A stretch of DNA of 64,000 nt from contig DAHUXZ010000003.1 in NCBI GenBank assembly GCA_027315455.1, forward strand, positions 36,484 to 100,483, given 5' to 3'. The DNA comes from Thermoplasmata archaeon. Its GTDB lineage: Archaea > Thermoplasmatota > Thermoplasmata > Lutacidiplasmatales > UBA184. The notes under the pieces are model-generated. The model was given only the letters and a program-made list of their open reading frames with translations. It was not told the DNA's origin and made no database searches. Shown piece after piece: positions 9,917 to 10,980 of the stretch (its first letter is position 1; every line of letters starts with the position of its first letter). The position numbers and the translations under genes were made by a program.

Positions 9917-9954
9917 TCTCGACCGCTGGCCCGGCGCCCCCGCGGAGCACAAGG

Positions 9955-9962
9955 CTTTTCTT
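9955..9962 (+). promoter_or_regulatory. T-rich TATA-like element about 25 nt upstream of the tRNA-His 5' end
   Basis: GGCTTTTCTTTGCG is the only AT-rich patch in the spacer before the tRNA. Confidence 0.3.
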
Positions 9963-9986: not shown

Positions 9987-10094
9987 GGCCGGGATGGGGT
10001 AGTTTGGTCTATCCTGGGGGACTGTGGATCCCTCGACCCGGGTTCAAACGGCGGCGGGGACCACCCCCGCCTCCGGAGACTCTCGGTCCCGGCC
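9987..10094 (+). tRNA. tRNA-His (anticodon GUG) with encoded G-1, C73 and a 32-nt intron in the T-loop (position 59/60); no encoded CCA
   Basis: Hand fold. G-1 at 9987. Acceptor 9988-9994 GCCGGGA pairs perfectly with 10087-10093 TCCCGGC. U8 at 9995. D-arm 9997-10000 / 10012-10015, with A14, G18G19 and A21. Anticodon stem 10017-10021 / 10029-10033, loop CUGUGGA, GTG at 10024-10026. T-stem 10038-10042 CCGGG / 10082-10086 CTCGG. T-loop TTCAAA (10043-10048) plus T10081. C73 at 10094. Confidence 0.75.
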
Positions 10095-10980
10095 CTCTCT
10101 TCCTGCCCCGCCGCGGGCGGGCGCGAGAGGCTCCGCCCGGCGCCGCGGGTCGGCGGAGCCCCTCGAGGACCTCGGGGAGCGCCGCGAGCGAGTAGTCGGC
10201 CCAGCGCGCCCCCCACTGGAGAAGGTCGGCGGGCGTCAGCGTCCAGCCCGGAAGGTTCGACGCGCGCGCGAGGGCGACCACCCCGGGGACCGACCCGGCC
10301 GCCTCCATGTCGAAGCGAGAATCGCCGATGAGGAAGACGGGCGCATCGGGGTAGCGCCGGCGGTACTCCGCGAGGTGCTCGCGCTTCGTCCCCTGTCCGG
10401 AGCCGAGGACGCCCTCGAACCAGAAGCGCAGCCCCTCCCGTTCGAGGACGAGATCCGCCATCTCGCGCTCGGCCCCGGTCGAGACGACCAGCGTCCATCC
10501 GTCGCCGCCGAGCCGCTTGAGCAGCCCGGGCACCTCGGGGAACGGGCGAGCCTGCGGGTAGGCCTCCCGAACCTTGCGCTCATGGAAGGCGCGGGCCACC
10601 CCCGACCGGGTGGTCGCCGAAACGTCGGGGTAGAGCTGGGTGAGCTGGGCCTCGAACGGCATCCCCGTGGTCGCGAGGTAGTGGATGCGGCCCTCCTCGG
10701 GGGGCGTGCCGAACGCCTCGAGAAGGATCGCCGCGGCGACCTCGCTGATGCGGCCGATGTCGTCCAGGATCGTGCCATCGAGGTCGAAAACGAGGACCCC
10801 GCGGGCGACGGAGCGCGGCGCCACGGGAGGCTCCGTCACCGGCGGTCGCGCGACCTCGGTGAACTGCGAGGTGGACGTGGGCAGCACCGGAAGCGGCGTC
10901 CCGACCGGCCCGCTGTCGGACGGTGGCGTGGGGGGGCTCGTCCGTCCGTTCCCACGACGGGGGCGCTGGCGGTCGGCCAC
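10009..10980 (-). CDS. HAD-superfamily hydrolase (phosphatase-like) with a Pro-rich N-terminal extension; its 3' tail runs antisense through the tRNA-His gene
   Basis: HAD motif I VLVFDLDGTILDD, motif II VSTGA, motif IV FLIGDSRFDMEAA. GTG start. The last ~45 codons are Arg/Gly/Pro-rich and overlap 10009-10094. Confidence 0.65.
   Translation of the reverse strand: MADRQRPRRGNGRTSPPTPPSDSGPVGTPLPVLPTSTSQFTEVARPPVTEPPVAPRSVARGVLVFDLDGTILDDIGRISEVAAAILLEAFGTPPEEGRIHYLATTGMPFEAQLTQLYPDVSATTRSGVARAFHERKVREAYPQARPFPEVPGLLKRLGGDGWTLVVSTGAEREMADLVLEREGLRFWFEGVLGSGQGTKREHLAEYRRRYPDAPVFLIGDSRFDMEAAGSVPGVVALARASNLPGWTLTPADLLQWGARWADYSLAALPEVLEGLRRPAAPGGASRARPRRGRKRGPGPRVSGGGGGPRRRLNPGRGIHSPPG
10049..10080 (+). 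other. Putative tRNA intron (32 nt) containing a 7-bp GC hairpin
   Basis: Removing 10049-10080 restores a canonical 7-nt T-loop TTCAAAT and the G53-C61 pair. Internal hairpin GGCGGGG (10053-10059) / CCCCGCC (10065-10071), loop ACCAC. Confidence 0.6.

Follow-up and report, generated by a model that had tools for sequence, protein, structure and literature searches.

A histidine tRNA gene with a bulge-helix-bulge type intron in its T-loop, at position 59/60, in a Thermoplasmata archaeon

The window analysed here, a 64,000-nucleotide stretch of DNA from an uncultured, very GC-rich archaeon of the class Thermoplasmata that lives in soil, carries a tRNA-His(GUG) gene on its forward strand, from G-1 at 9987 to C73 at 10094, and a gene for a HAD-family hydrolase on the opposite strand (Table 1). 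The initial annotation held that this tRNA folds only once the 32 nucleotides 10049-10080 are taken out of its T-loop, and the behaviour of standard tRNA finders bears this out. When these nucleotides are deleted, ARAGORN returns a flawless 76-nt tRNA-His(gtg) with a 7-bp acceptor stem, a 5-bp T-stem and the T-loop TTCAAAT, so that the proposed T-stem CCGGG/CTCGG is restored as well. On the intact DNA it gives a poor 91-nt 'tRNA-His' spanning 9988-10078, which has mismatches in the acceptor stem, lacks a T-psi-C loop and uses the true T-arm as an extra arm. The unspliced DNA scores 14.2 bits against the Rfam tRNA model, the threshold being 29. At the gathering threshold Rfam detects nothing in the whole window, and at E <= 10 it yields only this 14-bit match and chance matches to DUF3800-XI, mir-331 and others. 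The identity and conserved bases named earlier for this tRNA (the G-1:C73 pair, U8, A14, G18G19, A21, U33 and the anticodon GUG) all lie where they were placed; CCA is not encoded 3' of C73.

Table 1. Features of the tRNA-His locus (window positions) and further T-loop introns of the same genome, designated G000 (contig positions; these 13 lie outside the window).
Feature	Position	Strand	Remarks
Promoter-like box AAGGCTTTTC (BRE/TATA-like)	9951-9960	+	Ends 27 nt upstream of G-1
Genome-encoded G-1	9987	+	Read from sequence; opposite C73, histidine identity pair; invariant in 61/61 fetched orthologues
Exon 1, tRNA positions 1-59	9988-10048	+	ARAGORN on spliced sequence; acceptor 5' strand, D-arm, anticodon arm, T-stem 5' strand, TTCAAA
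Acceptor 5' strand GCCGGGA	9988-9994	+	Read from sequence
U8; A14; G18G19; A21; U33	9995; 10001; 10006-10007; 10011; 10023	+	Read from sequence
Anticodon GTG	10024-10026	+	Read from sequence
T-stem 5' strand CCGGG, then TTCAAA	10038-10042, then 10043-10048	+	Read from sequence
Central helix, 5' strand	10043-10046	+	U54·G10078, U55-A10077, C56-G10076, A57 x G10075
Intron, 32 nt, at T-loop 59/60	10049-10080	+	Register worked out from sequence; BHB type
Intron position 1, third nucleotide of 5' bulge	10049	+	Sequence
Inner helix, 2+7 bp	10050-10051/10073-10074; 10053-10059/10065-10071	+	C x U mismatch 10052/10072 between the two parts
Inner-hairpin loop, 5 nt	10060-10064	+	
Central helix, 3' strand GGAG	10075-10078	+	Intron 3' end ...GGAGAC
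Intron part of 3' bulge, AC	10079-10080	+	
Exon 2	10081-10094	+	U60 10081, CTCGG 10082-10086, TCCCGGC 10087-10093, C73 10094
Read-through tail of HAD ORF	10009-10098	-	29 sense codons and stop TAG 10009-10011, antisense to tRNA
HAD-family hydrolase gene, conserved part	10099-10980	-	Pfam HAD_2/Hydrolase/HAD at aa 62-228
Further T-loop introns, G000	C6:48198-48229, C8:20461-20491, C8:1318-1347, C11:33025-33053, C12:8608-8641		
Further T-loop introns, G000	C15:25681-25713, C30:9377-9410, C35:220-254, C44:39630-39662, C44:46270-46302		
Further T-loop introns, G000	C66:76410-76437, C74:179-212, C87:39123-39156		

The 3' half of the intron, 10065-10076 (CCCCGCCTCCGG), mimics the T-stem and the acceptor 3' strand, a decoy shared only with the nearest relative. 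Both ARAGORN, which ends the gene at 10078, and a custom covariance model, which was trained on five intronless His tRNAs from other families and ends it at 10076, are misled by it. On the raw DNA these two programs favour a gene that stops at about 10076-10078, either as the 91-nt tRNA with a long extra arm (ARAGORN, 9988-10078) or as a tRNA with a 17-nt insert in its T-loop and CCCGC/CTCCGG as its T-stem and acceptor 3' strands (custom model, 46 bits for 9989-10076). We consider such an early end extremely unlikely. Neither model can be drawn without non-standard pairs in the acceptor and T-stem, and that of ARAGORN must also do without a T-psi-C loop; the decoy 3' strand is found only in this genome and its closest relative; and pairing with GCCGGGA is impossible for the equivalent part of the intron in other species (for example ...CCCTGAGAC), the downstream TCTCGGTCCCGGCC being invariant. 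The alignment produced by the custom model on the unspliced window, with its 17-nt insertion, its false 3' end at 10076 and the 32-nt intron left unplaced, is thus rejected because the decoy 3' strand is not conserved. This misplacement of the intron implies that covariance models applied to unspliced DNA alone do not pick the right junction.

In a canonical archaeal intron, inserted between positions 37 and 38, the central helix uses positions 32-35, the 5' bulge comprises positions 36 and 37 with the first intron base, and the 3' bulge comprises the last two intron bases with position 38. The first two anticodon bases lie within this 4-bp central helix (PMC4090602). Applying the canonical rule to the T-loop gives a 3-4-3 bulge-helix-bulge (BHB) motif with a single A·G position, in which intron positions -6 to -3 are the partners of the four nucleotides that precede the 5' bulge. 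The outer helix is the 5-bp T-stem, and both flanking helices, h and h', have at least 2 bp. The two bulges, each of 3 nt, are formed by A58, A59 and the first intron C (10047-10049) and by the terminal intron A and C with U60 (10079-10081); they oppose one another across a central helix of four positions, as expected of an hBHBh' motif. The predicted cuts, after the second nucleotide of each bulge, fall between 10048 and 10049 and between 10080 and 10081, exactly where cleavage restores the cloverleaf. The strict form, with four standard pairs in the central helix, is broken at one place, A57·G (10046 x 10075). The motif, as drawn from the sequence, is slightly relaxed and close to the canonical 3-4-3. 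Where a relaxed BHB had been anticipated at the junctions, a BHB is indeed found, and what changes is the degree, which is near-canonical. The 7-bp GC hairpin that had been described for the excised segment is also present, as the upper part of the inner helix.

Comparison with related genomes gives this register its weight. We fetched 61 orthologous genes, of which 57 are distinct. The central-helix pairs at positions 54, 55 and 56 are kept in 56/57, 57/57 and 57/57 orthologues, respectively, and position 57 forms A-U in 24/57, which makes the motif strict 3-4-3 in these, and A·G in 30/57, including this genome. A59 and U60 are invariant in all 61, while the first and last intron bases vary (position 1 is G29/T12/C8/A8), and the junction is therefore fixed at 59/60, in strong support of the boundaries first proposed. 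It is true that the A·G opposition leaves a central helix of only 3 bp in this genome, that minimum free energy folding of its copy pairs C10049 (C1) with G10075 (G27), giving again a 3-bp central helix and a 5' bulge of A57-A59, and that a cut at 60/61 would also yield a 7-nt T-loop, TTCAAAC. An intron that is real and in another register (58/59 or 60/61), or one excised without a BHB-guided EndA cut, is nonetheless distinctly unlikely. Another register would bring a variable base into the T-loop, when A59 and U60 never vary and the intron ends do; no covariation is seen between intron positions 1 and -6; relatives that have Lutacidiplasmatales-like exons and an uninterrupted T-loop read TTCAAAT; and the 24 orthologues with a strict motif predict 59/60.

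The pattern of change across the gene distinguishes sharply between exons and insert. Exon 2 is identical in 60 of the 61 orthologues, the exception being a compensatory 7:66 change, and C73 stands opposite G-1 in every one. In exon 1 variation is confined to position 7 (the same single species, compensated at 66), position 9 and the D-loop. The intron, 28-33 nt long, differs at most positions, and the BHB structure is maintained by what changes: among the 39 distinct copies of equal length, 92% of cells are paired, and in 7 of the 10 pairs of the inner helix both sides change (59 cells). The score for covariation is 0.223, compared with 0.074 for shuffles, none of 500 of which reaches the observed value, and slid controls score 0.035-0.067, three to six times below it. 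Within the hairpin, the four G-C pairs at the top (GGGG/CCCC, 10056-10059 with 10065-10068) are nearly invariant over 39-57 orthologues, unlike the lower stem, which covaries freely. The T-loop introns of the Ala, Arg and Gln tRNA genes in this genome have similar SCGGGG...CCCCGS tops, and constraint, common descent or GC bias could each account for them. Two other identities for the insert were rejected. CUGA occurs in many orthologues, as in a box C/D guide RNA, but on inspection no C box fits within 32 nt. Self-splicing group I and II introns have ribozyme cores of hundreds of nucleotides; the insert is a simple hairpin of 28-33 nt in which no Rfam family reaches threshold.

The interrupted gene is widespread. 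A BLAST search with its 108 nt against 40 relatives gives a full-length match in 20 of 24 congeners, and among 144 family genomes, taken from a draw of 150 genomes of the order, the full 108-nt intron-bearing gene is found by BLAST in 138, spread over 7 genera. On this sequence comparison, the split gene occurs far beyond chance. An exact-pattern scan of public genomes gives at least 119 matching contigs, nearly all titled 'Thermoplasmata archaeon', which include metagenome-assembled genomes (MAGs) named AcS and SubAcS, names as in the study that described the Lutacidiplasmatales and gave genomes of roughly 69% GC and 2.1 Mb for them. This agreement supports placing the organism, and its family, probably in the order Lutacidiplasmatales.

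This is the only tRNA-His gene detected by any search of the assembly, which is 94% complete. There is no second GUG tRNA by ARAGORN without introns, by the Rfam tRNA model to E = 10 or by BLAST with the gene itself, and none emerges from a scan in which BHB-compatible segments of 11-110 nt were removed genome-wide and ARAGORN re-run, or from a scan of the genome focused on T-loop introns. In the congeners G011 and G041, 99-100% complete, the probe matches one gene only, the one with the intron. ARAGORN -i does report a second 'tRNA-His', on contig C28, which was discarded because its T-stem is 3 bp long and mismatched and its intron, of 432 nt, lies in seemingly coding DNA; the same run gives about 70 'tRNAs' with introns of 100-2500 nt, which were treated as false in this GC-rich DNA. 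A decaying pseudogene with an insertion in its T-loop, the working His tRNA being encoded elsewhere, for example in the unassembled part, would suit both the 94% completeness and the rejection of the unspliced sequence by standard models. It is very unlikely. Its exons would not be expected to be nearly invariant in 61 species around a fast-evolving insert whose fold is kept by compensatory changes, nor the gene to persist in 138 of 144 family genomes and as a single probe match in G011 and G041, with no second His gene found by ARAGORN, Rfam, BLAST or intron removal. The conserved promoter-like box upstream also speaks against decay. In 21/21 congeners G-1 is preceded, at a distance of 27-37 nt, by an AAASCTTTTC box in surrounding upstream DNA that cannot be aligned, and we infer that this box is a promoter. 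The gene is very likely essential.

The HAD gene approaches the tRNA from the other side. The initial annotation stated that a minus-strand ORF, 10009-10980, runs 86 nt antisense into the tRNA, and this is so, the HAD domain being confirmed by Pfam. The start of the gene is uncertain, with candidate GTG codons at 10980, 10887, 10839 and 10824; over this region (10824-10980) the ORF has about 55 codons of Pro/Arg-rich sequence ahead of the DxDGT motif. Twenty congeners have an orthologue, 68-85% identical, placed tail to tail with the tRNA. The stop codon TAG occupies +1 to +3 after C73 in 18 of these 20; the closest relative, G018, has its stop at +5 to +7, and one congener has it at a greater distance. 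Where G018 has AAG TAG GAA GGG, the present sequence has AAG AGA GGG, a 3-nt change that removes the TAG. Since the stop directly follows C73 in 18/20 congeners, the overlap, on comparative grounds, is a recent stop loss or an assembly error and not a conserved arrangement. The earlier alternatives, a real overlap or an artefactual extension, are thus both slightly wide of the mark: the extension is real in the sequence, no stop being left, and the overlap is specific to this lineage.

A functional, selected overlap, for example one that provides antisense regulation or a needed C-terminal tail, would be consistent with the lack of any stop before 10009 in this sequence, and is highly improbable in view of the stops in the congeners and of the 3-nt difference from the closest relative. 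The 29 added residues, moreover, are a Gly/Pro/Arg-rich translation of the antisense tRNA, and the C-terminal tails of the relatives are short, basic and not alignable. There is a lesson here for gene calling: in DNA of 72% GC, a single stop loss can produce a long ORF over an RNA gene.

What enzymes could process such a transcript? The ligase RtcB is present in this genome (579 bits). The splicing endonuclease EndA was not found in the 94%-complete assembly, either with PF01974 or by tblastn with the EndA of a congener; in 39 of 41 relatives it is encoded as one ORF with two PF01974 units. In the closest relative, G018, where the ORF of about 353 codons lies on the minus strand of contig C40, it adjoins a gene for a ZIP-like membrane protein. 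The corresponding neighbour in this genome lies at C4:1103-1882, where synteny with the closest relative breaks, and the remaining DNA to the contig end, C4:1-1100, has a lower GC content and a fragment that by eye resembles an IS630-type transposase. The EndA gene of this genome thus appears to have been lost at an assembly break. The G018 EndA aligns over its full length with the dimeric Archaeoglobus fulgidus EndA (1r0v, 2gjw) and keeps the catalytic Tyr, His and Lys. The alignment of its C-terminal unit with Methanocaldococcus jannaschii EndA (1a79) spans 170 residues and is interrupted only by gaps of 1-2 residues; because the gaps are so small the alignments indicate that the EndA of the relatives is of the α'2 architecture and has no room for the specificity loop of the Crenarchaea or ARMAN type.

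The α4 and α'2 enzymes are described as needing a strict BHB, and euryarchaea as having only canonical introns (PMC3239211, PMC4090602, PMC5829648). It was fair to call the intron unexpected in this type of genome, since the clade belongs to the Thermoplasmata and its relatives carry a two-unit EndA. For the homodimeric EndA of Ferroplasma, another member of the Thermoplasmata, a minimal BHB motif is enough for cleavage, whatever RNA surrounds it (PMC8707768). It is thus plausible that a near-strict BHB in the T-loop serves as a substrate for an α'2 EndA.

On the gene and its intron boundaries, the BHB-compatible fold, the conservation, the covariation and the enzymes (EndA in relatives, RtcB here), we conclude, with a probability of about 0.88, that the locus is a functional tRNA-His(GUG) gene with a BHB intron that would be spliced by EndA and RtcB, and that the HAD overlap is a by-product of stop loss. 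Transcription, cleavage and ligation are inferred to run as follows. Transcription from the conserved promoter-like box, about 30 nt upstream, would give a precursor containing the 32-nt intron. In this precursor the T-stem would serve as the outer helix, U54-U55-C56-A57 with the intron GGAG as the central helix, and the GC-rich hairpin as the inner helix. EndA should then cut after the second nucleotide of each bulge, that is, between A59 and C1 on the 5' side (A58, A59 preceding the cut) and between C32 and U60 on the 3' side (A31, C32 preceding it). RtcB would join A59 to U60, restoring the T-loop TTCAAAT, and RNase P would leave the encoded G-1 in place, CCA being added afterwards.

The His gene is one of several of its kind. 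Intron-removal scans of the genome give 14 tRNA genes with introns of 28-35 nt at 59/60: Asp GUC, Ser GCU, Ser CGA, Ser GGA, Arg UCG, Arg UCU, Gln CUG (two copies), Lys UUU, His GUG, Asn GUU, Ala GGC, Glu CUC and Gly UCC. Roughly 43 tRNA genes were counted in all, and these 14 make up about a third of them. Each has 7/7 acceptor-stem pairs after splicing and three or four central-helix pairs, and most of the 13 introns other than that of His end in GAGAC or GAAAC. Since even the His introns of orthologues diverge by 25-40% inside the genus, the likeness among the 14, whether from paralogy or from shared constraints, is indistinguishable from convergence. The tRNA-Lys(UUU) gene also looks disrupted in its 5' part.

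Outside the family the position of the intron changes. In G028, from a second family of the order, the 59/60 site of tRNA-His is likewise interrupted, by an intron of 19 nt, while in four genomes from a third family it has a canonical 37/38 intron and an intact T-loop; in other families of the class tRNA-His is intronless in eight and has a canonical intron in one. The tRNA-His T-loop intron is thus confined, on the sequences of the sample examined, to this order. The canonical introns of a sister family of the order (G025, G029, G030) and of G036, from another family, are about 20-21 nt long and leave the T-loop intact. The same His gene consequently has different intron positions, 37/38 and 59/60, in related families.

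Three known systems offer points of comparison. The closest is ARMAN-2 (Candidatus Micrarchaeum acidiphilum), in which 59/60 introns occur in pre-tRNA-Pro(GGG), with a strict hBHBh' motif, and in pre-tRNA-Cys(GCA), with a relaxed hBH motif (PMC3239211). The T-loop site, the use of the T-stem as outer helix and the short protein-spliced introns (splicing here being the predicted route) are shared, as are a position outside the Crenarchaeota and a high proportion of disrupted tRNA genes. The tRNA is different, however, being His in the present case, as is the intron sequence, and the ARMAN-2 EndA is a three-unit ε2 enzyme with a specificity loop, in contrast to the two-unit, α'2-type enzymes without an insert in the relatives studied here. 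In the Thermoproteales and other Crenarchaeota, 59/60 is likewise among the listed non-canonical sites (Sugahara et al. 2008 and Marck and Grosjean 2003, via PMC4090602), and many tRNAs per genome carry look-alike introns that standard finders miss. The crenarchaeal enzymes, in contrast, are heterotetrameric, (αβ)2, and the motifs are often relaxed (HBh' or hBH) and found at many positions, whereas in the present genome, from a mesophilic soil member of the Thermoplasmata, almost all of the non-canonical introns found are at 59/60 and near-strict 3-4-3.

The third system comprises the euryarchaeal 37/38 hBHBh' introns of Haloferax, Archaeoglobus, Thermoplasma and Ferroplasma (PMC8707768). An α'2 EndA (here in relatives), the 3-4-3 geometry, the rule for cut positions and a BHB that suffices regardless of RNA context are held in common; the difference is that the intron lies in the T-loop and not in the anticodon loop. 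Euryarchaeal lineages with α4 or α2 enzymes have been described as having single canonical introns only, in <10% of tRNA genes (PMC4090602), compared with the third or so of tRNA genes that have 59/60 introns here. Our literature search turned up no account of tRNA introns of the non-canonical kind in Thermoplasmata, and the paper on the Lutacidiplasmatales genomes gives no more than numbers of tRNAs. The intron type and the non-canonical site are known from archaea; in the literature searched, neither this lineage nor this enzyme type is reported with such introns.

Could this be the rule for the whole family? It would mean that at least 138 sampled species of soil Thermoplasmata keep 59/60 introns in about a third of their tRNA genes, single-copy essential ones included, with only an α'2-type EndA that lacks the specificity loops regarded as a requirement for non-canonical introns, and that the T-loop UUCR together with the T-stem supplies a ready-made half of the BHB. 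We see the arguments for and against this wider reading as evenly balanced. If it is true, any short hairpin with YGAR and two further bases at its end could be spliced out from 59/60 of any tRNA, which would account both for 59/60 as a hot spot and for the spread of introns between tRNA genes. Reviews tie non-canonical introns to (αβ)2 or ε2 EndA, and this clade would be a counter-example. There is also a consequence for annotation. Rfam misses the only His tRNA gene of the clade and ARAGORN models it wrongly, and as a result genomes of an abundant soil and peat group seem to be without tRNA-His and about a dozen other tRNAs.

Finally, in another family of the class, the locus G038:C7:59170-59390 (minus strand) contains a 5' part like that of tRNA-Arg(GCG), with GTTCGAA at its end; the long stretch beyond it does not resemble a tRNA and may represent a longer T-loop intron.
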